A stretch of DNA of 64,000 nt from an uncultured Gammaproteobacteria bacterium. GTDB taxonomy: Bacteria > Patescibacteriota > Microgenomatia > CAYFQP01. Positions within the stretch are counted from its first letter, which is position 1. The number at the start of each line of letters is the position of its first letter. The stretch is from NCBI GenBank assembly GCA_964345375.1, contig CAYFQP010000003.1:8875-72874 (forward strand), written 5' to 3'. Made by a program: the position numbers and the translations under genes. The notes under the pieces are model-generated. The model was not told where the DNA came from, did not search any database, and saw only the letters and a list, made by a program, of their open reading frames with translations. Below are positions 3,271 through 36,002 of the stretch, in pieces.

Positions 3271-5496
3271 TTATAAAGAAGTCCGCTTTAGCCTTAATGA
3301 ATTTAGAACTACCGAAAGCGAAGAAAAGGCCATTGCTCCTGAAGCAAAGATCGGGCTTAAGAGAATTCCGAAAAAAGGATAAAGAATGCCGGCGGCAACA
3401 GGAATCAAGGCAGAATTATAGAAAAAAGCCCAAAACAGATTCTGTCTGATCGTCCGCATCGTCAACTTAGAAAGTTTAATCGCTTCAACTAAATCCATCA
3501 AATCTGACTTCATTAAAGTAATCCCGGCTGACTCCATCGCCACATCAGTGCCTGCCCCCATAGCAATACCCACATTAGAGGCTGCCAAAGCGGGAGCATC
3601 ATTGATGCCATCACCGACCATAGAAACAATTTTCCCTTGTTTTTTGAGCTCTTTAACCTTCCCCTCTTTCGCAGCCGGAACCACCTCAGCCATAATTCTT
3701 TCCTTGCTAATCCTAACCTTCTTACCAATTGCCTCAGCTGTTCGAGGATTGTCTCCTGTTATGAGCCAAACATCAAGTCCCATTTTTTGTAAAACTCTGA
3801 CTGCTTTCTTAGAATTTTTCTTAAGAGTGTCCGCCACTCCAATGAGGCCAATAACTTTTTTATTGAGAGTCATTAAGATGGCTGTTTTACCCTCATCTTC
3901 TAGTCTCCTCATCCCCATTTCTGCCTCCTTAGAAATCTTAATCTTAAACTGACTCATTAAGGCCCGGTTGCCCTTAATAATCACCTCTTTACCTATATTT
4001 GCTCTAATTCCCTTACCAATTATGGCCTGAAAGTTTTTAGGCTCAATTAATTTAAGTTTTAATTTCTTGGCTTGCTCAACCACTGCCTGGCCTAAAGGAT
4101 GTTCGCTTCTTAGTTCAGCACTGGCTGCCAATCTTAGCAGCTCATTCTTGCTTTCATCTCCCAAACTAATAACGTCTGTCACCTCAGGCTCACCCTTGGT
4201 TAAAGTCCCGGTTTTATCTAAAACAATTGCTTCTATTTTATGAGTAGTCTCTAAGGCAGCCGCGTCTTTGACCAAAATACCTCGCTCAGCTCCCTTACCT
4301 GTGCCCACCATGATTGCTGTTGGCGTTGCCAAGCCCAAAGCACAAGGGCAGGCCACAATTAAAACCGCCACAAAAACAACCAGAGCAAAAGTTAAGCTCT
4401 GGCCACCAAGCAACAACCAAAAACCAGCCGATAAAACAGCAATAAAAATCACTGCCGGAACAAAATAGGAAGCCACCAGATCGGCCAAACGTTGGATTGG
4501 CGCTTTTGAACCCTGAGCTTCTTCAACTAACTTAATAATTTGGGCCAAAACCGTCTCTTTGCCTACTTTAGTAGCTTTGAACTTAAATGAGCCAGATTTA
4601 TTAATCGTTGCTCCAATTACCTGATCGCCCTTCCTCTTCTCCACCGGCATACTTTCCCCTGTCACTAATGACTCGTCAACCGCAGACTGACCCTCAATAA
4701 TCACGCCATCTACTGGAATTTTCTCACCTGGTCGAACAATAATAATCTCGCTAACCTTAACCTGGTCTATGGGAATATCCTTTTCCTTACCATTTCGAAC
4801 CACTCGGGCTGTTTTCGGGCTTAAACCCATTAACTTTTTGATCGCCTCAGAGGCTTGCCCCTTTGCCCTTGCCTCTAAAAGCCTGCCTAACAATATTAGG
4901 GCAATAATGATAGCGGCGGTTTCAAAATAAACTTCAGGCTGGATACCAGTCGGAGTTAAAATTGCAGGGAAAAATGTAGCTATGGTTGAATATAAGTAAG
5001 CCGCTGAGGTGCCGACGGCAATCAAAGTATCCATGTTGGCGGAAAGATTTTTTAAACCCCGCCAGGTACCCTGGAAAAACTCTTTTCCTGCCCAAAAAAG
5101 GACTGGGGTTGTTAGGACAAACTGGGCTTCTGGAATCATTAATTTGCTCATCCCTCCAACCAGAACGATCGCGGCTAAAAGACCACTAATAAAGACTTTT
5201 CTCTTTAACTCTTTTATCTCTGCCTCTTTCATCATTACCGCATGATCATGATTTCCTATTTTCTCCATATTTTCTTCAGGTTTTTGGGTAGCAACAAGCT
5301 CGTACCCTACTTTTTTAACAATCTCCGCCAGCTTCTCTACATTTATTTTTTTCTCATTAAACTCAATTGTCACTTTTTCAGCGGCAAAATTAACTAGCGC
5401 TGACTTAACGCCATCTATTTCCCTCAACGCTTTCTCGATTGTGGCCGCACAGGTGACACAATGCATCCCTCTGAGAATAAAATTTTGCTTTTTCAT
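3271..5496 (-). CDS. copA: copper-translocating P1B-type ATPase
   Basis: N-terminal [18 protein letters not shown] transmembrane motif, [15 protein letters not shown]. Confidence 0.9.
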
Positions 5497-20080: not shown

Positions 20081-21841
20081 TTACTTCTGAAGTTTATACA
20101 ACTTTTCTGCTTCCTTGAGGGTCGTCGCCTGAGAAGGCGACTTATCGTCCCGGAAACGGACTAGGCGAGGAAATCTTAAAGCATATTCAGCCGTATGGGT
20201 CGGAGATTTGGTAATATTATCTGCCTCGATTTCAACGACAATCTTGGGTGAACACCAAGTATCTGGAATCAAGTTTTTATCAACCTGATATTCTTTTGGT
20301 TTTTCTTTGGTCTTAACCTTCCCACATCTCTGATACATCTCTTTCCACTGCTCATCCGAAAGACCAGTCCCTATCTTAGAGATGGTTAAGAATTTATTTT
20401 TTTCTCTTACCCCAACTAAAAACGCTCCTAGCCCGAAAGCAGCTCTCTTACCTCTTCCTTTATAGTAACCCATAACGACACAATCTAAAGTGTCAGCCAA
20501 GCCTGCTCCTTTTTTACCCTTCTCTGTTTTAAATTTCACCCAGGTATAACCTCTTTTCCCTGGATCATAAGGAGCTTTCCATTTCTTGATCACCACTCCC
20601 TCAAGGCCTTTTTTCAATTGTTCGTCATGATATTTACGTAATTCGACTGGGCTCTCGGTGACAATCTGGGGTGAAAGAATGATCACCTTATTCTTTGAAG
20701 AAAGAATCTTGCCTAAAATCTCCCGTCTTTTATTAAAAGGCTCTTTAATCAAATCTTTACCATCCTTATACAAAATATCAAAGCAGAAGAATTTGAGAGG
20801 AATCTCTTTAGCCTTTTTGCCAATTTCGTACTTTCTTTTTCTTTTAATCGTCTCCTGAAAAGGTAAGAACTTGCCTGTTTTCGGGTCATAGCCAATTGCC
20901 TCACAGTCTAAAATTGCTTCTTGGGCCTTAACCTCCTTAAAAACTGCTTGGGCTAAATCCGGAAACATGTGGGTCGTATTTTCTAGATTACGGGTAAAGG
21001 TCCGGACAAAACCTTTAGGCCGAAAACCAAGCTCAAGCTGGTCCTCTCTTTCTTCCCATTTTCTTTTTTTACTAAAATGAACCTGGAGTCGGGTACCATC
21101 AAATTTAGGTTCAGCTCCTACTTTACCCATCTTTTTAATCATTTCCTCAGCTGTTGGTAGCCGTTGACAAAGAGCCGGCATAATCGGCACACCTAAACCA
21201 ACCTTGATTCCTTTGAGTCCTCTGATTCCTTTCTTTTTAATAATCTGGGCAATCTGACCAACATCAGCCCGAGCGTTGAAAGCCTCTTCAATTTCTCCTC
21301 TTTTACTCTTATCACCAGCAATCATCCAAGAAAGAGCGTCGAGAATGGTTAGGTCCGAGAAACCTAGTCTTAATTTGCCCAATGGAACTCGGGTGACGTA
21401 TCTTGCCGAGAGAGAATCCAAATCATCCAGAAGGGCCTTCATTTTCTCAATCTTTCTTTCTACTGAACCCTCACCTGATTCAGCCGCGATTTCATAAAGC
21501 CGCTTGTAAGTTTGGCTCACACTCATCGGTTTAGCCTTTGCTTTTTTGTCAAAAAAGGCAGCGGCGTCACCTAAGTCACCCAGGCTTTTATACTTTTTTC
21601 TAATTTCTTTTTCCTCTTTTCCATAAGCCTGGGCAAGAACCTTAATCATCATTTTTTCGGCCAAGTTAAACTCAATCCCCGCATAAAGAGGCGCCAATTG
21701 ACCCAGAGAAAGATAGCAAATTTTATCTATTTCATCAGCACCAGACTCTTTTAACAACTGGGCTAAAATCTCGGTCATTTTATTCCGAGAGGCAGTTTCT
21801 TCGAGTTTCTGGAAGTAATTAGCTAGTTTTTGAAAGGTCAT
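20081..21841 (-). CDS. lig: ATP-dependent DNA ligase
   Basis: KFDGTRLQVH (KxDG adenylation motif), EGVVIK. Confidence 0.85.
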   Translation of the reverse strand: MTFQKLANYFQKLEETASRNKMTEILAQLLKESGADEIDKICYLSLGQLAPLYAGIEFNLAEKMMIKVLAQAYGKEEKEIRKKYKSLGDLGDAAAFFDKKAKAKPMSVSQTYKRLYEIAAESGEGSVERKIEKMKALLDDLDSLSARYVTRVPLGKLRLGFSDLTILDALSWMIAGDKSKRGEIEEAFNARADVGQIAQIIKKKGIRGLKGIKVGLGVPIMPALCQRLPTAEEMIKKMGKVGAEPKFDGTRLQVHFSKKRKWEEREDQLELGFRPKGFVRTFTRNLENTTHMFPDLAQAVFKEVKAQEAILDCEAIGYDPKTGKFLPFQETIKRKRKYEIGKKAKEIPLKFFCFDILYKDGKDLIKEPFNKRREILGKILSSKNKVIILSPQIVTESPVELRKYHDEQLKKGLEGVVIKKWKAPYDPGKRGYTWVKFKTEKGKKGAGLADTLDCVVMGYYKGRGKRAAFGLGAFLVGVREKNKFLTISKIGTGLSDEQWKEMYQRCGKVKTKEKPKEYQVDKNLIPDTWCSPKIVVEIEADNITKSPTHTAEYALRFPRLVRFRDDKSPSQATTLKEAEKLYKLQK

Positions 21842-21844
21842 TGT

Positions 21845-22042
21845 TCAACCTCCAAGGACCTGAGAAAAGAAAAAAAAGGCAAAAATAACTACACCAATAA
21901 AAAGAACCCCAAAAAGAATTGAAAGCCAGCCAGCCGTTTCATTCTTAAGAACTTTATTTAACCCCTCACCGACTAAGGTCAGACCAAAAAGAGTTGGTAA
22001 AACTAAAATCATATATAAAAATTGAGGGTCTGTTGGTCTCAC
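21845..22042 (-). CDS. hypothetical small membrane protein
   Basis: 65 aa, two TM helices, couples ligase and Fic ORFs by 4-nt overlaps. Confidence 0.35.
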   Translation of the reverse strand: MRPTDPQFLYMILVLPTLFGLTLVGEGLNKVLKNETAGWLSILFGVLFIGVVIFAFFFFSQVLGG

Positions 22043-23091
22043 TTCATTAAATACTTCGCTGCCTTGGTTTTGCCTTCTTTCTTCACTATACCCTTTTTAA
22101 TTAGGTCTTTCAAATCCCTTAAAATCGTGTCATCAGAGACCATGGATAGGACTTTTCTTGCCTCTGAAGTGGTGATCTCTTGATTCTCTTCAAGATATTC
22201 AACCAGTCTCATTTGCCTTTCTGATAAAGCTACTTGTTTACCAATCCTTCTTCTTAATTTAGAGTCAACCGACAATTTCCTCACTCTTTCCTTAATCCGA
22301 TTAAGCTCAATGGCAAGGATATCAGTAAAATATTCTAACCAGCCAGTAAGATCTCTTTTATCCAAGTCCGAACCCTGACTCGAAGTGGCGATCAAAGCCC
22401 CAAAATAAGAAGCTGAGTCTTTGTCAAAGTTTTCCTCTAAAGAAAAAAACCTCTTAATATCAAATCCTTCTAGAAAGAGAATTAAAGTGGCAAAGGCTCG
22501 AGCTGTCCGGCCATTGCCTTCAACAAAAGGATGAATAGCTACCAAAATATAATGAGCAATTCCTGCTCGTAAAACCGGATGAAGTTCTTTTGCCTTTGAA
22601 TCATTAAGCCAGGTTAGAAAATCTTTAATTAGGTAAGGCACCTCAACCGCTGGTGGCGGCCGAAAGGCGATCTCCCCAGTCTGACTGTTTCTTAAAACAA
22701 CTTGGCTCTGGCGGTATTTCCCTTGATTTTTCTTCTCAACGATCCGGGCACAAGTCAGATGGTGAATCTTTTTTAGTTGTTCTTCTGTATATTTCTTCCC
22801 TTTCAAACTACCAATGTATTTCATCACCTGGCGATAATTAATTATCTCTTGAATGTCTCGATCCTTAGCCAGGATTTTCTCTCCTTCGAGAACTTTAACT
22901 GCTTCCTGAAAAGAAAGTTCATTGCCCTCTAAATGAGTTCCATAATGGACTGTTCTTTGAATCGCCTCCTCCCGAAACTTCTTTTCCCAATAAGGCACCA
23001 AAGGAGCGTTATCGATCACTTCTCGACAGGCTTCAACAATGCCAATATTCCTGAGGATTTTATTGGTAATTCTGAATTTAGGTTGATACAC
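22039..23091 (-). CDS. Fic family protein (class II, N-terminal inhibitory helix, C-terminal wHTH)
   Basis: HPFVEGNGRTARAF Fic motif; THLEGNE matches [ST]xxxE[GN] inhibitory motif. Confidence 0.85.
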   Translation of the reverse strand: MYQPKFRITNKILRNIGIVEACREVIDNAPLVPYWEKKFREEAIQRTVHYGTHLEGNELSFQEAVKVLEGEKILAKDRDIQEIINYRQVMKYIGSLKGKKYTEEQLKKIHHLTCARIVEKKNQGKYRQSQVVLRNSQTGEIAFRPPPAVEVPYLIKDFLTWLNDSKAKELHPVLRAGIAHYILVAIHPFVEGNGRTARAFATLILFLEGFDIKRFFSLEENFDKDSASYFGALIATSSQGSDLDKRDLTGWLEYFTDILAIELNRIKERVRKLSVDSKLRRRIGKQVALSERQMRLVEYLEENQEITTSEARKVLSMVSDDTILRDLKDLIKKGIVKKEGKTKAAKYLMK

Positions 23092-26104: not shown

Positions 26105-26920
26105 CTATTTTTGACAGCTCGGACAATAGAAGGTGCCCCGACCACCAAGTTTAATTTTCCTAATTTTTCCTTGACAATCGAGACAGGCCTTGCCTTCTCT
26201 CTGATAAACTAAAAAATGGTCTTGATAGGAGCCTTTTCTGCCCAAGGCATCAAGATAGTACTGATCAGAAGCGCCCCGATATTTAATGCCTGCTTTAAGA
26301 ACTTTTTCGATCTTTTCAAGAAGCTTCTTTGCCTCTTTTTTTGTTACCTTCTTAGCCGGTCGGCGAGGGTCAATTTTGGCTAAAAATAAGGCGTCATTAG
26401 CATAAATATTGCCCAGACCAGCAATCTTCTTCTGATCCATTAAAACAATCTTGATTGGTCGACTGGTTGAACCCAGAATCTTTTTAAAGGTCTTTAAATC
26501 AAGACCCTCTAAAGGCTCAGGACCAAATTCAGAAACAAGCTTTTTCAGTTCTTTACTATCTTTAATCAATCTTACCCAGCCAAATTTCCTTAGATCAGCA
26601 AAGCGGAGTTCTTTATTATCACTTAAGGTAATGGTTACATGCTGCCAATCATCTTTAGGAGCACCTTTTTTTCTGACCAAAAGGCGACCAGTAAGTTTAA
26701 GATGAATAACTAAAATCTGATTATTGGAAAGAAAAAGTTGAAGCAATTTCGCTCTTCTCTCTATTTTCTTAATCATTATTCCGACGATTGCCTTTTTAAC
26801 TTTAGCTAGTGAAGGTTTCACTTGTTTGGGAGAATCAGTCGTAATATCTAGAATCTTCTTGCTAACAATTAGTCTTGAAAGGTCTTTCTTGATTGTCTCT
26901 ACTTCTGGTAGCTCAGGCAT
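26105..26920 (-). CDS. mutM: formamidopyrimidine-DNA glycosylase
   Basis: MPELPEVE N-terminus, C-terminal zinc finger CxxC-x16-CPSC. Confidence 0.9.
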   Translation of the reverse strand: MPELPEVETIKKDLSRLIVSKKILDITTDSPKQVKPSLAKVKKAIVGIMIKKIERRAKLLQLFLSNNQILVIHLKLTGRLLVRKKGAPKDDWQHVTITLSDNKELRFADLRKFGWVRLIKDSKELKKLVSEFGPEPLEGLDLKTFKKILGSTSRPIKIVLMDQKKIAGLGNIYANDALFLAKIDPRRPAKKVTKKEAKKLLEKIEKVLKAGIKYRGASDQYYLDALGRKGSYQDHFLVYQREGKACLDCQGKIRKIKLGGRGTFYCPSCQK

Positions 26921-28034
26921 TTTTCTTCACAAACTCTTTTATTTCCCTTTTAAATCTCTCTTTAGAAAACTTCTTTGCCTGTTTAAAACAATCTTCTTTT
27001 TTATATTTCTCAGGATTAAATTTTTTCAAGACCTTAACTAATGAATCAACTATTGGCTTATCAAAAAACTCACCTGTTTTCCCCTCAATAACTGACTCGA
27101 TTAATCCTCCTTGGCGCAGGGAAATTACTGGCCGGCCACAAGCCTGAACTTCAACTGGCATAATTCCAAAATCTTCTTCTAAATTACAAAAGATAAAAGC
27201 CTGACAGCCCCCCATTAATTCTGCTTTTTTCTCCTCGGTTACCTCTCCCAGAAAGTCGACTGTTGGCCCGGCCATCTTTTTTAATTCTTCTCCATAGCCA
27301 GCAAAAGCCCGGCCGAAAACTTTTAAAGGTAATTTTAGCTCATTACAGGCTTTGATGGCTAAATCAACCCTCCTTGCCCTGGCTAATCTTCCTCCCGCTA
27401 GATAATATTGAGATTGCCTAGTTGGATAATCTCCGAAGTTGGATCCTGTCTGAATCTCGGGAGTGTCAACAGGCGGATAAATAACAGTTGCTTCCTTACG
27501 ATAGAATTTCTTGATTCTTTGAGCCGTATTTCTTGAATTGGCAATAAAATAGTCAACTCTTTGAGCGGCTGAATAATCAACTGGCCGAAGAAAATGATTG
27601 ATTGTTTCTCCTAACACCCTTCCCCACCAGTGCTTACGCCATTCTCGAGCCGTTGGGTAGCCATAAAGATAACGAGGGGGTGTGTGACAATAACAAATAT
27701 GAGTTGTTTTAGGATTAGTTTTAATTAAATTAGGACAATAAGCACCGGTGGCGGAAACAATAACGACATCAAAATCCGAAAAATCAAAATTGTTAAAGAC
27801 GACTGGTGCTAGAAGTCGAAAAGGACTGATCAACTTAGCCTTAAAAGGAATCTTTTGTAACCAAGAGGGTTTTACTTTCCATTTTTTAAGTCTTTCTTTA
27901 TGGGGGCCAAAAAAACCAGGCAGATAGACTGAAGTATAGACTGGCGCCTCGGGCCAGATTTCATGGAGAGCTTCCAGAACTCTTTCCGCCCCTCCATACT
28001 CTTTTAAATAATCATGTACCAAAGCAATCTTCAT
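26913..28034 (-). CDS. GT4-family glycosyltransferase
   Basis: MKIALVHDYL start, GT-B fold with E-x7-E-like C-terminal half. Confidence 0.7.
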   Translation of the reverse strand: MKIALVHDYLKEYGGAERVLEALHEIWPEAPVYTSVYLPGFFGPHKERLKKWKVKPSWLQKIPFKAKLISPFRLLAPVVFNNFDFSDFDVVIVSATGAYCPNLIKTNPKTTHICYCHTPPRYLYGYPTAREWRKHWWGRVLGETINHFLRPVDYSAAQRVDYFIANSRNTAQRIKKFYRKEATVIYPPVDTPEIQTGSNFGDYPTRQSQYYLAGGRLARARRVDLAIKACNELKLPLKVFGRAFAGYGEELKKMAGPTVDFLGEVTEEKKAELMGGCQAFIFCNLEEDFGIMPVEVQACGRPVISLRQGGLIESVIEGKTGEFFDKPIVDSLVKVLKKFNPEKYKKEDCFKQAKKFSKERFKREIKEFVKKNA

Positions 28035-28077
28035 TTTCCTTAGTATAACAAAAGCCTGCAAAAACTTGACAAAAAAC

Positions 28078-28106
28078 TTGACTTCCTAGCCTCCTTGTGC
28101 TATAAT
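28078..28106 (+). promoter_or_regulatory. sigma70-type promoter TTGACT-17-TATAAT driving the hairpin-array ncRNA
   Basis: TTGACT 28078-28083, TATAAT 28101-28106, first hairpin begins at 28113. Confidence 0.7.
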
Positions 28107-28112
28107 CCCTTT

Positions 28113-28299
28113 TGCTGGTGGAGCAATCCATCAGCATTCTGGTCTTATCGCAAGATAAGACCACCAAGGCCTGCCCTCGGGCAGGCCACTAAGGAGAAAT
28201 CGCAAGATTTCTCCACCAAGCTCCGAGCTTGCTCGGAGCACCAAGTCCCGATAGCAATATCGGGACATCAAGGGCCTCCGCAAGGAGGCCCATTTTTTT
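28113..28299 (+). ncRNA. novel structured sRNA: seven consecutive stem-loops (four GCAA tetraloops) with ACCAA(G) linkers
   Basis: Hairpins at 28113-136, 141-162, 169-186, 193-214, 220-239, 245-266, 272-291 (stems 7-9 bp, all different sequences); T7 run after last hairpin. Confidence 0.6.
28272..28299 (+). terminator. rho-independent terminator of the ncRNA
   Basis: GGGCCTCCgcaaGGAGGCCC followed by TTTTTTT. Confidence 0.7.
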
Positions 28300-28311
28300 G
28301 TTTATTTTTAT

Positions 28312-29232
28312 CTAAAAAAGTTTTGTTTGAGAACCTGTTTTCTTCTTCTTGGGTTTAGACTTTTGATCCCCTTTTATTCTCTCAATTAAGCTTCTAAAAC
28401 CCAAAATTTTAAATTCTTTAATCGCGTTTTCTTTTTCTTCATCAGTCAAGATGAACTGGGCTTTTTTTAAGTCTAATTCAACTGGCACATCAGTAACAAT
28501 CCTCGCTAATTTCCGCGAAAGCTCGGCCATCTCGGCTCCTTCAACCAACTTCCTGGCTTGAGATTCAGGTAACTTATCTAGGTGTTTGTAGATCTTATCA
28601 ACTGTGCCATATTGCTCCAGAAGTTGGGCAGCTGTTTTTGGTCCTATTCCTGGTACACCCGGATAATTATCAGAAGGGTCGCCGACTAATCCTTTGTAGT
28701 CAATTATTTGTCTGGGTTTGATCCCCATCTTTTTCTTGACTTTTTTCTGATCAAATATCTGAGCCTCACTCATCCCTCTCACTGGTGCATAAATCTTAAC
28801 TCTTGGTCCAACCAATTGAAACATGTCTCGATCTCCAGTAACAATCATTGCCTCTAGTTTTCGCTTTGCCGCTTGTTTTGCCAAAGTACCAATAATGTCA
28901 TCAGCCTCATAACCTTCAATCGCAAAAAAAGGAATCCCTAGGGCTCTTAAAATCCGACGGACATTCTCTAACTGACTAGCTAGTTCTGTTTCCATCTTCG
29001 GTCTTTGGGCTTGATAACCCACAAATTCAGTGTGGCGAAAGGTTGGTTTAGGGGTATCAAAGGCAACAATCAAGTATTTTGGTTTTAAATCATCAATCAC
29101 CTTAAGGAGCATCGTCGTAAAGCCATAAACCGCATTGGTCAACTCACCTTTTTTATTTCTCATTGTCTGAGGTAAGGCATGATAAGCCCGATGAAGAATG
29201 GCGTGGCCATCAATAAGAACAAGACGTTTCAT
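28312..29232 (-). CDS. 5'-3' exonuclease (FEN / Pol I N-terminal domain family)
   Basis: LVLIDGHAILHRAYHALP, PIN-like and H3TH motifs (GIPGIGPKTA). Confidence 0.85.
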   Translation of the reverse strand: MKRLVLIDGHAILHRAYHALPQTMRNKKGELTNAVYGFTTMLLKVIDDLKPKYLIVAFDTPKPTFRHTEFVGYQAQRPKMETELASQLENVRRILRALGIPFFAIEGYEADDIIGTLAKQAAKRKLEAMIVTGDRDMFQLVGPRVKIYAPVRGMSEAQIFDQKKVKKKMGIKPRQIIDYKGLVGDPSDNYPGVPGIGPKTAAQLLEQYGTVDKIYKHLDKLPESQARKLVEGAEMAELSRKLARIVTDVPVELDLKKAQFILTDEEKENAIKEFKILGFRSLIERIKGDQKSKPKKKKTGSQTKLF

Positions 29233-30265: not shown

Positions 30266-32158
30266 TTAGTCTTTTTTTTCCTCTTTTTCAACCCTCTTTC
30301 CGACTAGGTTTTCAAACTCTTCCTGTTCTAAGGTCTCTTTCTCCATTAAAGCCTCAGCTACTTTATCAAGTTTTTTTCTTGATTTTTTTAAGATCTCAGT
30401 TGCTTTTCGATAGGTCTTCTCAATAATCTGGTTAACTTCTTTATCTACTTTAGCCGCCATTTCCGGAGAAAGTTTGCTTGGCTCCATCCACATCGCTCGA
30501 CCCATGTCTGAGTATTCAACCTGAGGCCCTAGGTTAATTGGTCCTAAAGCACTCATCCCAAAATCAATCACCATTTTTCGGGCCACTTTAGTTGCCTGAG
30601 AAATATCGTTGGCTGCACCGGTAGTCATTTCCTTAAAAATCAAGTCTTCGGCTGCCCGACCACCTAGTATCGCTGTTATCTGCTCTAGGAGTTCGGATTT
30701 GGTCTTATGAACCCTCTCTCTTAAGGGCGGAATTAAGGTGTGGCCTAAAGAGACTCCCCGGGCAACAATCGAAATTCGAGAAACTGGATCCATGTGGGGT
30801 AAAAAGTGAGTCACTAAAGCATGGCCTGACTCATGATAGGCAGTCATCTTTCGATCCTCTTCGGTCTGGAGTTTTCTCTTGGCTGGCCCAAGCTTAACCT
30901 TAAGGGCCGCTTCATTAATATCAGTCATTTCAATTGATTTTTTATTATTTCTTGCTGCGCCAATGGCAGCTTCATTAAGCATATTTTCTAAATCAGCTCC
31001 AGAAAAACCAACTGTCCTTTTGGCTACTTTTGACCAAGAAACGTCTGGACCAAACGGCTTTCCTCGAGCATGAATTTTTAGAATTGCTTCTCTTTCTTGA
31101 ATATCTGGCATGTCTAAAACTATTCTTCGATCAAATCTTCCTGGTCTTAAGAGGGCCGGGTCAAGGAGATCACCGCGATTTGTAGCTGAAATCACTATCA
31201 CGTTATCATTCGGAGTAAATCCATCCATCTCTACCAAAATCTGATTTAAGGTCTGTTCTCTTTCATCATGACCGCCCATTGCCCCCATCCCTCTCATCCG
31301 ACCAATTGCATCAATTTCATCAATAAAAATAATGGAGGGGGCTGCCTTTTTGGCATTATTGAACAAGTCTCTCACCCGGGCGGCCCCTACTCCAACTAGC
31401 ATCTCCATAAACTCTGAGCCAGCCATTGAGAAAAAAGGAACGGCTGCTTCACCAGCAACTGCTTTAGCCAAGAGGGTCTTACCACAACCAGACGGTCCAA
31501 CTAAGAGAACACCTTTAGGCGTTCGGGCTCCTAGAGCTCGATATTTAGCCGGATGTTTCAAGAAATCAACCACTTCCTCAAGCTCTTTTTTCGCCTCAAC
31601 AATACCGGCAACGTCTTTAAAAGTAATATCCTGCTTGCCTTTAGCAAAAAGTTTGGCCCGAGAACGGCCAAAAGAGAAAATCGAGTCTTGGGCTCCTCTC
31701 GCCTGGCGAATAATGAAGAAAAAGAAAACAGCCATCAAAACCAAAGGTAAAAATGTTCCTAAAATGTCCACCCAGAGGCGGGAAAGTGATTGGTCTTTAA
31801 TGGTCACTTTAACCCTAGTCGGGTCTATCTCCGCGTTCTCAAAAACCTCGGTCATTGATTGACCTGGTTCTTTCCGAGAAACAGCTATTTTATCCTCTTC
31901 TTTATAATTTAAGGTTAAACGGTCGCCCCCAACAACAATTTCATCAACCTTATCTTCTTTAACATCAATTAGAGCCTGAGACAAAGAGATTTCTTCTGTC
32001 TCAGGAGGAAGACCCCCGATTAAAGAGAAGAGAAAAGAAAAACCGATTAAAGAAATAAGAAGCCAGATAATAATATTTTTCGGACTAAAGTTTAGCTTAA
32101 ATTCAAATTTGCGCATTTTACGCTTAGGAGGACTTTTCCTGAGATTAATTCTGGCCAT
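30266..32158 (-). CDS. ftsH: ATP-dependent zinc metalloprotease FtsH
   Basis: GPSGCGKT Walker A, AAA SRH, HESGHAL zinc site; extended -10 TGGTATAAT 12 nt upstream. Confidence 0.92.
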
Positions 32159-32189: not shown

Positions 32190-32270
32190 GATTTTGGAAG
32201 ACAATTAAATCAGCCCCATTGCTTTTTTTGCTTCTCGAAGTGTTTTCTTAGCAATCTTAGAGTAATATTC
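32190..32270 (-). repeat. diverged (~85% identity) duplicate of the trpS 3' end plus 3' flank (gene remnant)
   Basis: Encodes EYYSKIAKKTLREAKKAMGLI* vs trpS C-terminus YCSKIAKETLREAKKAMGLI*; matches 33278-33360. Confidence 0.7.
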
Positions 32271-32721
32271 AGCCCAAAATTTCTAGAGTCGCATCTAAAA
32301 ATTTCTTCGCTCCCTCGACTGCTTGTTTAGCTCCTTTCGCTGAATAGATACTTTCGTAATTAGCCGCTTCTCTTAAGCCCATCGCTTCGTCGAAATAATC
32401 GAGCATCCCAGAATCAAGTAATTTTTCTTTGACAAACAACTCTTTAATCGCTACCCCCAGACAATAATGGCCTCTTTCGCGATAGCCCCGTGAGTAAAGA
32501 AGAGCCCTAGCTGAATGGAAAAGAGAATAATAACCGGCGATGGTTGCATATTTAAAGTTTTTACTTCTCAAGAAATTGTTAGCGTTTTTTAAATCCCCTT
32601 TAGCAGCTTTAAGTTCAACCCTCATTTTATTCCTGGCCTTGGGAAACTTGATAATTTTTCTATTTTTCAAGCAATTTTCAAAATCTTTACTCATGTTGCT
32701 CCTCCCAAAGCACTTTACCAT
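32269..32721 (-). CDS. HEPN domain protein (toxin-like component of HEPN-MNT pair)
   Basis: R-x4-H HEPN motif (RERGHY), helical 150-aa protein overlapping MNT gene. Confidence 0.7.
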   Translation of the reverse strand: MVKCFGRSNMSKDFENCLKNRKIIKFPKARNKMRVELKAAKGDLKNANNFLRSKNFKYATIAGYYSLFHSARALLYSRGYRERGHYCLGVAIKELFVKEKLLDSGMLDYFDEAMGLREAANYESIYSAKGAKQAVEGAKKFLDATLEILG

Positions 32722-33232
32722 TGTTTATCTCTTCGTAAAAGACTGGATCTTTCTTCTTAAGTTCCATTAACTCTAGAAAGTTTTTAATCACTGGTTGAAT
32801 TTTTTGACCTATTTTGCTTTCTTTAATCATCTGCTGGACTTGTCTTTTCTCATTAGTGAGAATAAAGAGATCGAAGTCACTCTCGGCTGAATCTTTTCCC
32901 TGAGCGGCACTACCAAAAAGAATAACCTTCTGACTAACTTTCTGAAGTTTAGTAAGGAGAGGTCTTAACAATTCAATGGTGCGGACAACCTTCATTTGAG
33001 AAACCACGGGATCGTTTTGATCTAAAAAATAAACACTCAGGTTCCCCACCTTCACTTTCTCTATCTCCCTGTCAGCCACCTTTTTTTCTAGTATCTGATG
33101 ACAGGTAGAGATACTCGCACCTGAAGTTTGAGCAATTTGAGAAAGATACATCTTTTCACCCCCCACATTGTCTAAAAGAACATTCATTATCTTTTTTTCT
33201 GACCGCATGTTTCTTTTCATAGTTACATCCAC
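32687..33232 (-). CDS. minimal nucleotidyltransferase (MNT) with N-terminal wHTH (antitoxin-like partner of HEPN)
   Basis: LFGSAAQGKDSAESDFDLFILT (GS-x9-DxD), N-terminal HTH-like extension. Confidence 0.75.
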   Translation of the reverse strand: MDVTMKRNMRSEKKIMNVLLDNVGGEKMYLSQIAQTSGASISTCHQILEKKVADREIEKVKVGNLSVYFLDQNDPVVSQMKVVRTIELLRPLLTKLQKVSQKVILFGSAAQGKDSAESDFDLFILTNEKRQVQQMIKESKIGQKIQPVIKNFLELMELKKKDPVFYEEINNGKVLWEEQHE

Positions 33233-34514: not shown

Positions 34515-34516
34515 GT

Positions 34517-34587
34517 GGCAGGGGTGGGAGTTGAACCCACGACCACTTGTTTATGAATCAAGCGCTCTACCGCTGAGCTACCCTGCC
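34517..34587 (-). tRNA. tRNA-Met elongator type (anticodon CAT; could alternatively be tRNA-Ile2 with lysidine)
   Basis: Cloverleaf with D-loop AGCGGTA, anticodon loop TTCATAA, fully paired G1-C72. Confidence 0.7.
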
Positions 34588-34660
34588 TGGTTGCGGGGCC
34601 AGGAGTTGAACCTGGTCTGTGAGATTATGAGCCTCACGTGCTACCCTACACTACCCCGCT
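34588..34660 (-). tRNA. initiator tRNA-fMet (anticodon CAT)
   Basis: Anticodon loop CUCAUAA; 3' end CCCCGCAACCA identical to E. coli tRNAfMet; position 1 (A) unpaired with A72. Confidence 0.65.
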
Positions 34661-35093: not shown

Positions 35094-36002
35094 TTGACAA
35101 CTATCCCCTTCAATGATATTATAGACCCCATCATGGCAGGCGAATTAACCTCTTTTTCTCTTGCTCGAGACAAATTCATTAACCACCTTAAGAATGAAAA
35201 TCGGTCAATCTCCACCATTTTAGCATACGGCAAAGATGTCGAACAGCTGGCCGAATTTCTTAACCAAAAGAAAATCACCCAAGTCACCTCAGTTCAACCA
35301 GAACACATTGAAACTTTTAAAAAAGAGCTTAATAAGAAAGGCTATACGGCCAAGTCCGTCTCCCGAAAACTTAATTCCATCAAAACCTTCTATCGCTTTC
35401 TTAAAAGTGAAGGAGTGGTTGAAAACGACCCGGCCGCCTCAGTCAGCCATCCTAAGTATGAGGTTAAACCTCCTCGAATTCTTTCTAAAATGGAATACCG
35501 GGCTCTTCGCGACGCCTGCCGAGACGATCTCCGCATCGCCACCATTGTTGAGTTAATGCTTCAGACAGGCATCAGAATCGGCGAGGTTTCTCGCCTAGAG
35601 TTAGAGGATATTAAGAACGATGAGCTAGTAATCAGGGCCTATCAATCTCAACCAAACCGAACTCTTCCCTTAAATAAAGCCGCCAAAAGTTCCCTTGACC
35701 GCTATCTTCAAGAGAGACCAAAAACAAGAACTAAATCAGTCTTTGTGACAAAAACTGGTCGGCCTTTACTTGTCCGTAATATTCGAACAGCAATTGACCG
35801 CTATTTTCGAATTGCCGGGATTGAAGATGCTAAAGTCAATGATCTCCGTAATACCTGGATTGCTCATCATCTCAAAGCCGGGACCTCGGTTGTTATCCTC
35901 TCCAAATTAGCTGGCCACAAACGACTTTCGACGACCGAAAAATACCTTCAATTCGCTAAAGAAAAGCCTGAAGGAAAGAAAATCAAACTCGAAGAACTCT
36001 GA
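35094..36002 (+). CDS. tyrosine-type site-specific recombinase (XerC/XerD-like integrase)
   Basis: N-terminal SAM-like core-binding domain, catalytic region with R...HxxR...Y (AHHLKAGTS...LAGHKRLSTTEKY). Confidence 0.75.
   Translation: MTTIPFNDIIDPIMAGELTSFSLARDKFINHLKNENRSISTILAYGKDVEQLAEFLNQKKITQVTSVQPEHIETFKKELNKKGYTAKSVSRKLNSIKTFYRFLKSEGVVENDPAASVSHPKYEVKPPRILSKMEYRALRDACRDDLRIATIVELMLQTGIRIGEVSRLELEDIKNDELVIRAYQSQPNRTLPLNKAAKSSLDRYLQERPKTRTKSVFVTKTGRPLLVRNIRTAIDRYFRIAGIEDAKVNDLRNTWIAHHLKAGTSVVILSKLAGHKRLSTTEKYLQFAKEKPEGKKIKLEEL

Follow-up and report, generated by a model that had tools for sequence, protein, structure and literature searches.

The window analysed here, 64,000 nucleotides (64 kb) of contig CAYFQP010000003.1 from an uncultured member of the Patescibacteriota (Microgenomatia), carries a gene for a small RNA (sRNA) that is made of seven consecutive hairpins. 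It lies between a glycosyltransferase gene, from which it diverges, and a 5'-3' exonuclease gene, with which it converges and whose stop codon is 12 nt from the U-tract at the end of the hairpin array. An earlier note, made from the letters of this DNA, had proposed an independent orphan non-coding RNA gene bracketed by a consensus TTGACT-17-TATAAT promoter and a T7 terminator, with divergent and convergent neighbours. The analysis bore this out: the promoter agrees with the consensus at 11 of 12 positions and is the sole match of such quality within 26.5-30 kb, and the array closes with an 8-bp hairpin and T7 at 28272-28299. As scanned, this terminator reads GGGCCTCC-GCAA-GGAGGCCC followed by T7, with 7 of its 8 pairs being G-C; the last hairpin thus combines a GC-rich stem-loop with a U-tract as an intrinsic terminator does. 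From the position of the -10 box we infer a start site about 7 nt past it.

RNAfold of the + strand from 28108 to 28300 gave exactly seven hairpins and nothing else, with a minimum free energy of -114.5 kcal/mol. Dinucleotide-shuffled sequences averaged -55.2 +/- 4.3 kcal/mol (z = -13.8) and 0 of 200 folded as well; a repeat of the test gave z = -15.5. The antisense strand was less stable (-104.4 vs -114.5 kcal/mol). The hairpin coordinates in the table come from a separate hairpin scan. Fold and scan agree on the seven consecutive hairpins described in the earlier note, whose coordinates were off by 1-2 nt at most. Its description of one architecture built on differing stem sequences also stands, with stems of 8-10 bp according to the scan. 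Five loops are GCAA where four had been counted, as the presumed AGCAAU loop gains an A-U closing pair; the other two are CUCG and CUUG. The linkers measure 3-5 nt (UUC, CCAA, ACUAA, ACCAA, ACCAA and AUCAA). No tandem repeat was found at the sequence level inside 28113-28299 by Tandem Repeats Finder (TRF), no second cluster of at least three such hairpins was present on either strand of the 64-kb window, and the array had no match of at least 13 nt elsewhere in it.

The homologous gene was found in nine further metagenomic loci, in the same place and orientation and convergent with the 5'-3' exonuclease gene. Eight of these were reached by the exonuclease, which is 67-83% identical to that of the window, and the ninth (L211) through a neighbouring open reading frame (ORF) that we call ORF-X. 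Including the window, the ten arrays hold 3, 4, 4, 4, 5, 6, 7, 7, 7 and 7 hairpins and range from 85 to 193 nt in length. The contigs stem from SRR20755635, SRR35816793, ERR12076137, SRR22388041/40, SRR9617867, JGI 3300056905, 3300031566 and 3300032020, and ENA ERZ23486233 and ERZ27247683. All ten loci have the promoter TTGAC-(17)-TGCTAYAMT in common. In the window the second of two -35-like boxes (28078-28083), which arise from tandem 12-mers, is the -35 of the sRNA promoter; the same 12-nt duplication AAAAACTTGACA also occurs in L084, L085 and L086 and is confined to loci without ORF-X. A run of six or seven T closes 7 of the 10 arrays, and the remaining ends are ATTCTTTT (L086), GCTTTTTT (L209) and a weak ACTTTATT (L081). 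In L086 the 5' end of the glycosyltransferase gene, the sRNA promoter and the opening bases of hairpin 1 occur a second time, at 3610-3990 and adjoining an N run; this is due either to faulty scaffolding or to a local duplication.

Features of the sRNA locus in the window, the homologous arrays (L numbers denote metagenomic loci; exonuclease percentages are identities to that of the window) and ORF-X
Feature	Location	Strand	Basis or remark
GT4 glycosyltransferase gene, divergent from the RNA	26913-28034	-	family scan
Tandem 12-mers AAAAACTTGACA / AAAAACTTGACT, two -35-like boxes	28060..28083	+	TRF: period 12, 1.9 copies, 100% match
sRNA promoter, sigma-70-type: TTGACT, 17-nt spacer, TGc-TATAAT (extended -10)	28078..28106	+	11/12 consensus positions plus TG
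Predicted transcript, ~187 nt: seven hairpins, linkers, U7 tail	28113..28299	+	promoter, terminator, fold
Hairpin 1 (constant 5' domain): UGCUGGUGGA-GCAA-UCCAUCAGCA, one G-U pair	28113..28136	+	in 10/10 arrays
Hairpin 2 (constant 5' domain): UGGUCUUAUC-GCAA-GAUAAGACCA	28140..28163	+	in 10/10 arrays
Cassette hairpin 3: GGCCUGCC-CUCG-GGCAGGCC	28168..28187	+	window only
Cassette hairpin 4: GGAGAAAUC-GCAA-GAUUUCUCC	28193..28214	+	also in L082, L085
Cassette hairpin 5: GCUCCGAG-CUUG-CUCGGAGC	28220..28239	+	compensated variant in L084
Cassette hairpin 6: GUCCCGAUA-GCAA-UAUCGGGAC	28245..28266	+	also in L082, L085, L086
Hairpin 7 (terminator stem)	28272..28291	+	variants end arrays of L081, L084, L209
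Intrinsic terminator (hairpin 7 plus U7): GGGCCUCC-GCAA-GGAGGCCC-AUUUUUUU	28272..28299	+	terminator scan
5'-3' exonuclease gene, convergent with the RNA	28312-29232	-	family scan
Array of L081			exonuclease 83%; 4 hairpins
Array of L082 (L083 identical)			exonuclease 79%; 7 hairpins
Array of L085			exonuclease 78%; 7 hairpins
Array of L086			exonuclease 78%; 6 hairpins
Array of L207			exonuclease 76%; 3 hairpins
Array of L084			exonuclease 74%; 7 hairpins
Array of L208			exonuclease 71%; 5 hairpins
Array of L209 (L210 identical)			exonuclease 67%; 4 hairpins
Array of L211 (L212 identical)			reached through ORF-X; 4 hairpins
ORF-X (173-178 aa, upstream of RNA gene), L081	3671-4192	-	
ORF-X, L082	3710-4243	-	
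ORF-X, L207	1365-1901	-	
ORF-X, L211	2501-3037	+	

In all ten arrays the stretch from promoter to terminator is wholly tiled by perfect hairpins. Together the arrays comprise 54 hairpins of 32 distinct sequences, and their 488 base pairs include zero mismatches or bulges. The fold z-scores range from -9 to -15.5, and the sense strand was more stable than the antisense strand in 10 of 10 cases. Among the 452 pairs of nine arrays 19 are G-U, all of which pair on this strand only; the G-U of hairpin 1 becomes an A-C mismatch on the opposite strand. The earlier note had suggested looking for conserved hairpins with covariation in relatives, and this was found in an alignment of hairpins 1-2 from nine loci (A1; 20 pairs, 178 cells). 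All 178 cells were paired and double (compensatory) changes occurred at 10 of the 20 pairs (6/10 in hairpin 1 and 4/10 in hairpin 2), values that were matched by 0 of 500 column shuffles, and sliding the 3' partners by 1-3 columns lowered the pairing to 29-49%. The stem of hairpin 1 exists in three versions (GCUGGUGGA, GCUGAUAGA and GCUUGAGUC). Similarly, related hairpins of the variable part of the array, the cassettes, show at least two Watson-Crick pair types at 17 stem positions, 6 differences that are G-U only, and 0 disrupted pairs. Compensated examples are hairpin 5, where GCUCCGAG/CUCGGAGC corresponds to GCUCCAAG-CUUG-CUUGGAGC in L084 with a change from G-C to A-U, hairpin 6 (GUCCCGAUA/UAUCGGGAC vs GUCCCGACA/UGUCGGGAC), the pair GCCCCGCC/GGCGGGGC vs GCCCAGCC/GGCUGGGC, and GGGGAGAUC, a compensated variant of the hairpin 4 cassette. 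This shows that the folded + strand RNA is under selection, and we regard the RNA gene and its structure as real with high confidence.

Hairpins 1-2 form a constant 5' domain, in which the invariant positions cluster at the base of hairpin 1 (UGCU/AGCA), at the junction AUUYU and at the base of hairpin 2 (UGGUC/GACCA, almost invariant). They are trailed by 1-5 cassette hairpins, the last of which bears the U-tract and acts as terminator. Cassettes were shown to be duplicated, lost and reordered between genomes. The hairpin 4 cassette is found in identical form at position 4 in L082 and at position 3 in L085, the hairpin 6 cassette GUCCCGAUA occupies an inner position in the window, L082 and L086 and forms the terminator in L085, and the cassette GGUUUCGCC is present twice in L082. 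Cassette stems are GC-rich, have 8-9 bp and usually carry a C(GCAA)G loop; in one type the stem is 7 bp long and capped by a UCA triloop. The arrays are built of hairpins of 17-24 nt and linkers of 4-6 nt, units are 25-27 nt long, and every stem starts with G. The 50 loops tallied were GCAA (40), GAAA (5), CUUG (2), UCA (2) and CUCG (1). For the 32 cassette linkers we counted ACCAA 20 times, AUCAA 4 times, GCCAA and AUCAC twice each, and ACUAA, ACCAG, ACUCAA and AUUCAA once each, giving a single-stranded consensus A-Y-C-A-A/C ahead of the opening G of the next stem. The unusual feature of this orphan multi-hairpin sRNA is its cassette-type evolution, in which units are duplicated, lost, reordered and reused as terminator with every base pair kept.

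A covariance model of hairpins 1 and 2 (R1) gave 72-89 bits on the ten loci only. In the two closest species-representative genomes, L001 and L002 (exonuclease 66% and 62% identical), no array was found and the exonuclease and glycosyltransferase genes abut. Likewise, neither the hairpin-cluster scan nor R1 found an array in 80 species-representative loci with exonuclease homologues of 40-66% identity, the lone exception for R1 being a weak 18-bit match in L033, in a different multi-hairpin region. As the array occurs in closer relatives and in none at 66% identity or less, the gene must have been gained or retained only in a narrow clade, and it is restricted to such a clade of Microgenomates-like Patescibacteria, which belong to the candidate phyla radiation (CPR). 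The named relatives of the exonuclease come from metagenome-assembled genomes of Levyibacteriota, Collierbacteria, 'Microgenomates bacterium' and 'Patescibacteria group', by which the host of the window is a Microgenomates-like CPR bacterium. A metagenome scan for ACCAAG-N15-22-CACCAAG-N15-22-CACCAAG gave no GCAA hairpin array among the 120 matches listed, which were unrelated tandem or coding repeats, and viral contigs scanned with cassette and hairpin 1-2 patterns gave chance matches only, with no hairpins. The region in L033, a more distant relative, is an intergenic multi-hairpin stretch (4960-5140, - strand) that occupies the corresponding place, between an exonuclease gene (45% identical) and a tgt-like gene; its segment CUCAGCAUUUUGUCUUGC bears a weak likeness to the junction of hairpins 1 and 2 (18 bits with R1, E about 0.04), and there is no Rfam match.

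With Rfam 15 at gathering thresholds the whole window gave four tRNAs only, all of them elsewhere, and no tRNA gene was found at the array by ARAGORN. On positions 27950-28450 (501 nt) at E <= 10 the best matches reached 13-24 bits against thresholds of 37-229 and fell mostly on the terminator. The cmscan run that the earlier note had suggested thus placed no family above its gathering threshold, in agreement with the view that the RNA does not match SRP RNA, 6S, tmRNA or RNase P. The region had also been said to hold no plausible ORF, and the 87-aa ORF at 28095-28358 is indeed purely mechanical, starting between the -35 and -10 boxes and having no Pfam match. Stem substitutions are compensatory, not synonymous, and since arrays of 85-193 nt are composed of 17-24-nt hairpins and 4-6-nt linkers, no conserved reading frame is possible. 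A literature search found no described RNA of this tandem-hairpin kind. The tandem-hairpin RNA is therefore new, in that it is in neither Rfam 15 nor the searchable literature.

By analogy, the RNA would be most like the multi-hairpin sponge RNAs, yet it lacks the defining marks of each named family. CsrB, CsrC and RsmX/Y/Z titrate a protein in a multivalent manner through the motif GGA (ANGGA) in their loops. The present RNA resembles CsrB and RsmZ as an orphan sRNA with its own promoter and terminator, serial hairpins with a repeated short motif, a unit number that varies between species and, as proposed, multivalent titration. However, its loops are GCAA, its linkers AYCAA and its stems long, perfect and GC-rich, and membership of the CsrB/RsmZ family was rejected as the 50 loops tallied contain no GGA and Rfam gave no match. 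No CsrA domain was found in the 27 window ORFs scanned (64 kb of genome). CRISPR arrays consist of identical direct repeats of 25-36 nt between unique spacers; here TRF detected no tandem repeat in 28113-28299 and the constant elements are only 4-6 nt, so that a CRISPR array was rejected. REP/BIME and BOX-type elements are single palindrome families with tens to hundreds of dispersed copies. Several GC-rich intergenic palindromes in a row with a modular copy number recall REP/BIME, but the array occupies a single fixed locus, its stems all differ, it has a dedicated promoter and its G-U pairs are strand-specific; with no other cluster or match of at least 13 nt in 64 kb and the same locus in all relatives, this assignment was dropped. 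ToxI has near-identical direct repeats of 34-36 nt, forms pseudoknots and is cut by the adjacent toxin endoribonuclease. The layout of promoter, tandem RNA units and terminator is alike, and in principle a protein could bind the units one by one; a type III toxin-antitoxin system was rejected for want of sequence-level repeats and of a PADLOC or Pfam toxin match in the neighbours tested. TIGR-Tas systems, including tandem stem-loop arrays, have been described in phages and CPR bacteria; their units have two unpaired spacers of 8-12 nt flanked by the boxes C (CCA) and D (UG) and are processed into 36-nt guides, and a Nop-domain protein is encoded next to the array (PMC12045711). Tandem short units in CPR, serial palindromic hairpins, a short element containing CCA and a rho-independent terminator at the end are found here too. 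In contrast to TIGR, only the 4-nt loops and 3-6-nt linkers are unpaired, and there is no adjacent Tas protein.

Directly upstream of the RNA gene and on its strand, L081, L082, L207, L211 and probably L208 (4-5 of the 10 loci) carry ORF-X, and in L208 its frame apparently continues through the sRNA promoter into hairpin 1. ORF-X evolves fast: in loci with exonucleases 76-83% identical to that of the window, its versions are 26-38% identical to each other, and only 3 homologues were found among 5.8 billion proteins. With AlphaFold2 (AF2) 1 of 5 models was acceptable (pLDDT, the predicted local distance difference test score, 74). On the side of the glycosyltransferase, the gene starts at ATG 28034 and not at TTG 28061 as the earlier note had it. 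Just upstream of this ATG lies an apparent extended -10 promoter of its own, TGTTATACT (28042-28050, - strand), which is kept in the array-bearing L081 and L084 and is missing from L001.

As to function, a multivalent decoy or scaffold is the likeliest role of the RNA, to which we assign a probability of roughly 35-40% on the evidence of its architecture. The strong, constitutive-looking promoter would yield a transcript of about 85-190 nt that starts inside hairpin 1 and ends with a hairpin and U-tract; both ends being buried in helices, the RNA should be stable. The cassettes would be independent, additive units whose number is free to vary (3-7). Units that are autonomous and free in number would make the function probably additive per unit, as in a multivalent decoy or scaffold. 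In essence this is the proposal of the earlier note, a titrating RNA like CsrB/RsmZ or a decoy for a GNRA-binding factor, with which the data are compatible. A partner, of which several copies would be bound, may read the end of a helix along with the AYCA linker, or else the GNAA loop, and the repeated GCAA loop and AYCAA linker could be its binding motifs. The constant 5' domain may serve as a specific address or offer another binding site.

Several points weigh against a decoy or scaffold. The case for it is drawn from architecture, and the ten known loci all belong to one clade. The uniformity of loops and linkers can be explained without a partner, by paralogous cassettes, by the extra stability of the C(GCAA)G loop and by the scarcity of U in the linkers, as U-poor A/C linkers let RNA polymerase pass a GC hairpin without terminating. 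Furthermore, ORF-X, which alone among the genes is found beside the RNA in some of the loci, is absent from the 64-kb window and had no match in Pfam, PHROG or PADLOC, and a Foldseek search of its model against the PDB gave nothing significant, only SRPBCC-like matches below significance. With no family or fold match, 3 homologues and its absence from the window, ORF-X was rejected as the partner protein. A search within the window for trans targets by complementarity gave matches that were not above chance.

If the hairpins have no trans role, they might instead act as an insulator or terminator stack, in which the strong promoter opposes read-through from the exonuclease into the glycosyltransferase gene and the hairpins are tandemly duplicated terminator stems with their U-tracts replaced. 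The loci L001 and L002, which are without the RNA gene and have an exonuclease-glycosyltransferase operon, are consistent with this, as are the glycosyltransferase promoter TGTTATACT in array-bearing loci, the U-poor linkers, the ability of any cassette to act as terminator and the lack of a - strand terminator past the exonuclease gene in the terminator scan. For that purpose, however, one terminator would suffice in place of 3-7 perfect hairpins. Hairpins 1-2 are distant from the terminator and yet kept by compensatory changes, all 488 pairs are intact, those of the G-U type on the + strand only, which indicates selection on the folded + RNA, and in L081, L082, L207 and L211 ORF-X already parts the two genes while the RNA is still kept. 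We consider such a stack unlikely. Still less probable, in our estimation, is a cis-antisense role, in which - strand read-through from the exonuclease gene would pair perfectly with the abundant + RNA and the duplex be cut, for example by RNase III, to define the exonuclease mRNA 3' end or uncouple the downstream genes. The convergent layout with a stop codon so near the U-tract and the missing - strand terminator fit this role as well; complementarity alone would suffice for it, though, hairpins would be unneeded and self-structure on both strands would slow the pairing, and the uniform loops and linkers and the turnover of cassettes would be unexplained.

Other accounts take the hairpins as separate products or as DNA. 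The array could be a precursor of tRNA-acceptor-like microhelices, from which RNase P, cleaving on the 5' side of each G, would release CCA-ended hairpins that mimic uncharged tRNA ends. A stem G...C followed by A-CCA-A looks like an acceptor stem, its discriminator A73 and CCA, NCCAA is present in 22 of 32 cassette linkers (ACCAA 20, GCCAA 2), all stems open with G, and ACCA also joins the window's pair of tRNA-Met genes. However, CCA is not family-wide, as L207, L208, L209 and L211 use AUCAA, AUCAC, ACUCAA and AUUCAA, and this genome's tRNA genes lack an encoded CCA. These linkers in four lineages and the tRNA genes without CCA weaken the microhelix reading, which we judge quite improbable; a tRNA-like CCA minihelix was rejected since ARAGORN found nothing at the array and NCCA is lost in those four loci. 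A palindrome cluster that works at the DNA level, of the REP/BIME kind through cruciforms or protein binding, or a translated 87-aa ORF is very improbable. The array is an intergenic palindrome cluster and the mechanical ORF 28095-28358 exists, but read on the opposite strand the 19 G-T pairs turn into A-C mismatches, which together with the single fixed locus, without a match of at least 13 nt elsewhere in 64 kb, contradicts a DNA-level palindrome function; the ORF starts inside the promoter, has no Pfam match and would have to run through arrays that range from 85 to 193 nt by units that are not multiples of 3. A TIGR-like or CRISPR-like guide-RNA array, with GCAA and ACCAAG as repeats and the stem arms as spacers, is scarcely credible. 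TIGR arrays occur in CPR, have spacers of about 9 nt and CCA/UG boxes and end with a terminator (PMC12045711), and the arms here are 8-10 nt with linkers that often contain CCA. Both 'spacers' of a unit, however, are perfectly complementary and co-evolve (488/488 pairs) and none is unpaired, the unit is 25-27 nt compared to 36 nt, cassettes are common to several genomes, and the nearby genes encode neither a Nop-domain (Tas) nor a Cas protein. The array is therefore not a TIGR array.

One specific form of the multivalent decoy can be named by analogy, and it is a long shot: the cassettes, as interchangeable copies of one recognition unit, might mimic the 3' minor domain of 16S rRNA with helix 45 and the following GAUCA, thereby titrating a small-subunit assembly factor such as the GTPase Era or another protein that binds a helix end plus AYCA. 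The KH domain of Era binds GAUCA directly after 16S helix 45, which has a GNAA tetraloop, and two adenines are critical for this (PMC10582724). Helix 45-GAUCA and the cassettes share a helix of about 10 bp, a GNAA cap and then single-stranded A-U-C-A, with the same spacing of the two adenines in GAUCA and AYCA. The likeness is one of 4 nt and shape only, though; the linkers are mostly ACCA, and the G of GAUCA and the following CCUCC are absent. At cmscan E <= 10 no ribosomal-RNA family was listed for the 501-nt region, and no Era gene was among the 27 window ORFs scanned. If true, such mimicry would amount to an RNA-level brake on ribosome biogenesis in reduced-genome bacteria, with its strength set by the number of cassettes.

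To our knowledge, the non-coding RNAs described so far in Patescibacteria (CPR) are very few. This group, uncultured and with minimal genomes, accounts for a huge share of bacterial diversity, and the gene described here is a clean RNA case in it, with clear transcription signals and a structure that covariation proves. Should it act as a multivalent decoy, Patescibacteria would have their first RNA of that type, and it would point to a new RNA-binding partner; if not, natural selection has produced a string of independent, non-interfering hairpins that is of interest for RNA design. With ten loci in one clade the family is narrow and the claim stays modest.

The wider neighbourhood encodes Fpg, a RecF-like ATPase, FtsH, a class I tRNA synthetase of the Trp/Tyr type and a HEPN/MNT pair. 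The GC content of the window is 40% and its GC skew stays negative in each 4-kb bin; of the ORFs of at least 110 aa about 85% lie on the - strand. Nearly all genes being on the - strand, the sRNA gene is among the few + strand units, and it may lie head-on to replication. A replication origin or terminus at the locus was ruled out by the uniformly negative GC skew across the window. The FtsH of the window (30266-32158) has 630 aa and no intein, whereas that of L084 (1-2496) has 1070 aa and an intein with a LAGLIDADG-type homing endonuclease. Overlapping genes for a HEPN-domain protein (150 aa) and a nucleotidyltransferase/MNT protein (181 aa) at 32269-33232 (- strand) are probably a HEPN-MNT toxin-antitoxin pair. 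Tandem tRNA-Met (CAT) genes at 34515-34659 (- strand) are separated by four bases, ACCA (34591-34588), and in the tRNA genes inspected the discriminator base is never followed directly by an encoded 3' CCA. Additionally, the window encodes a three-domain ATP-dependent DNA ligase of archaeal/eukaryotic type (20081-21841, - strand), a Fic-domain protein (22039-23091, - strand) and a XerC/D-like tyrosine recombinase (35094-36002, + strand).

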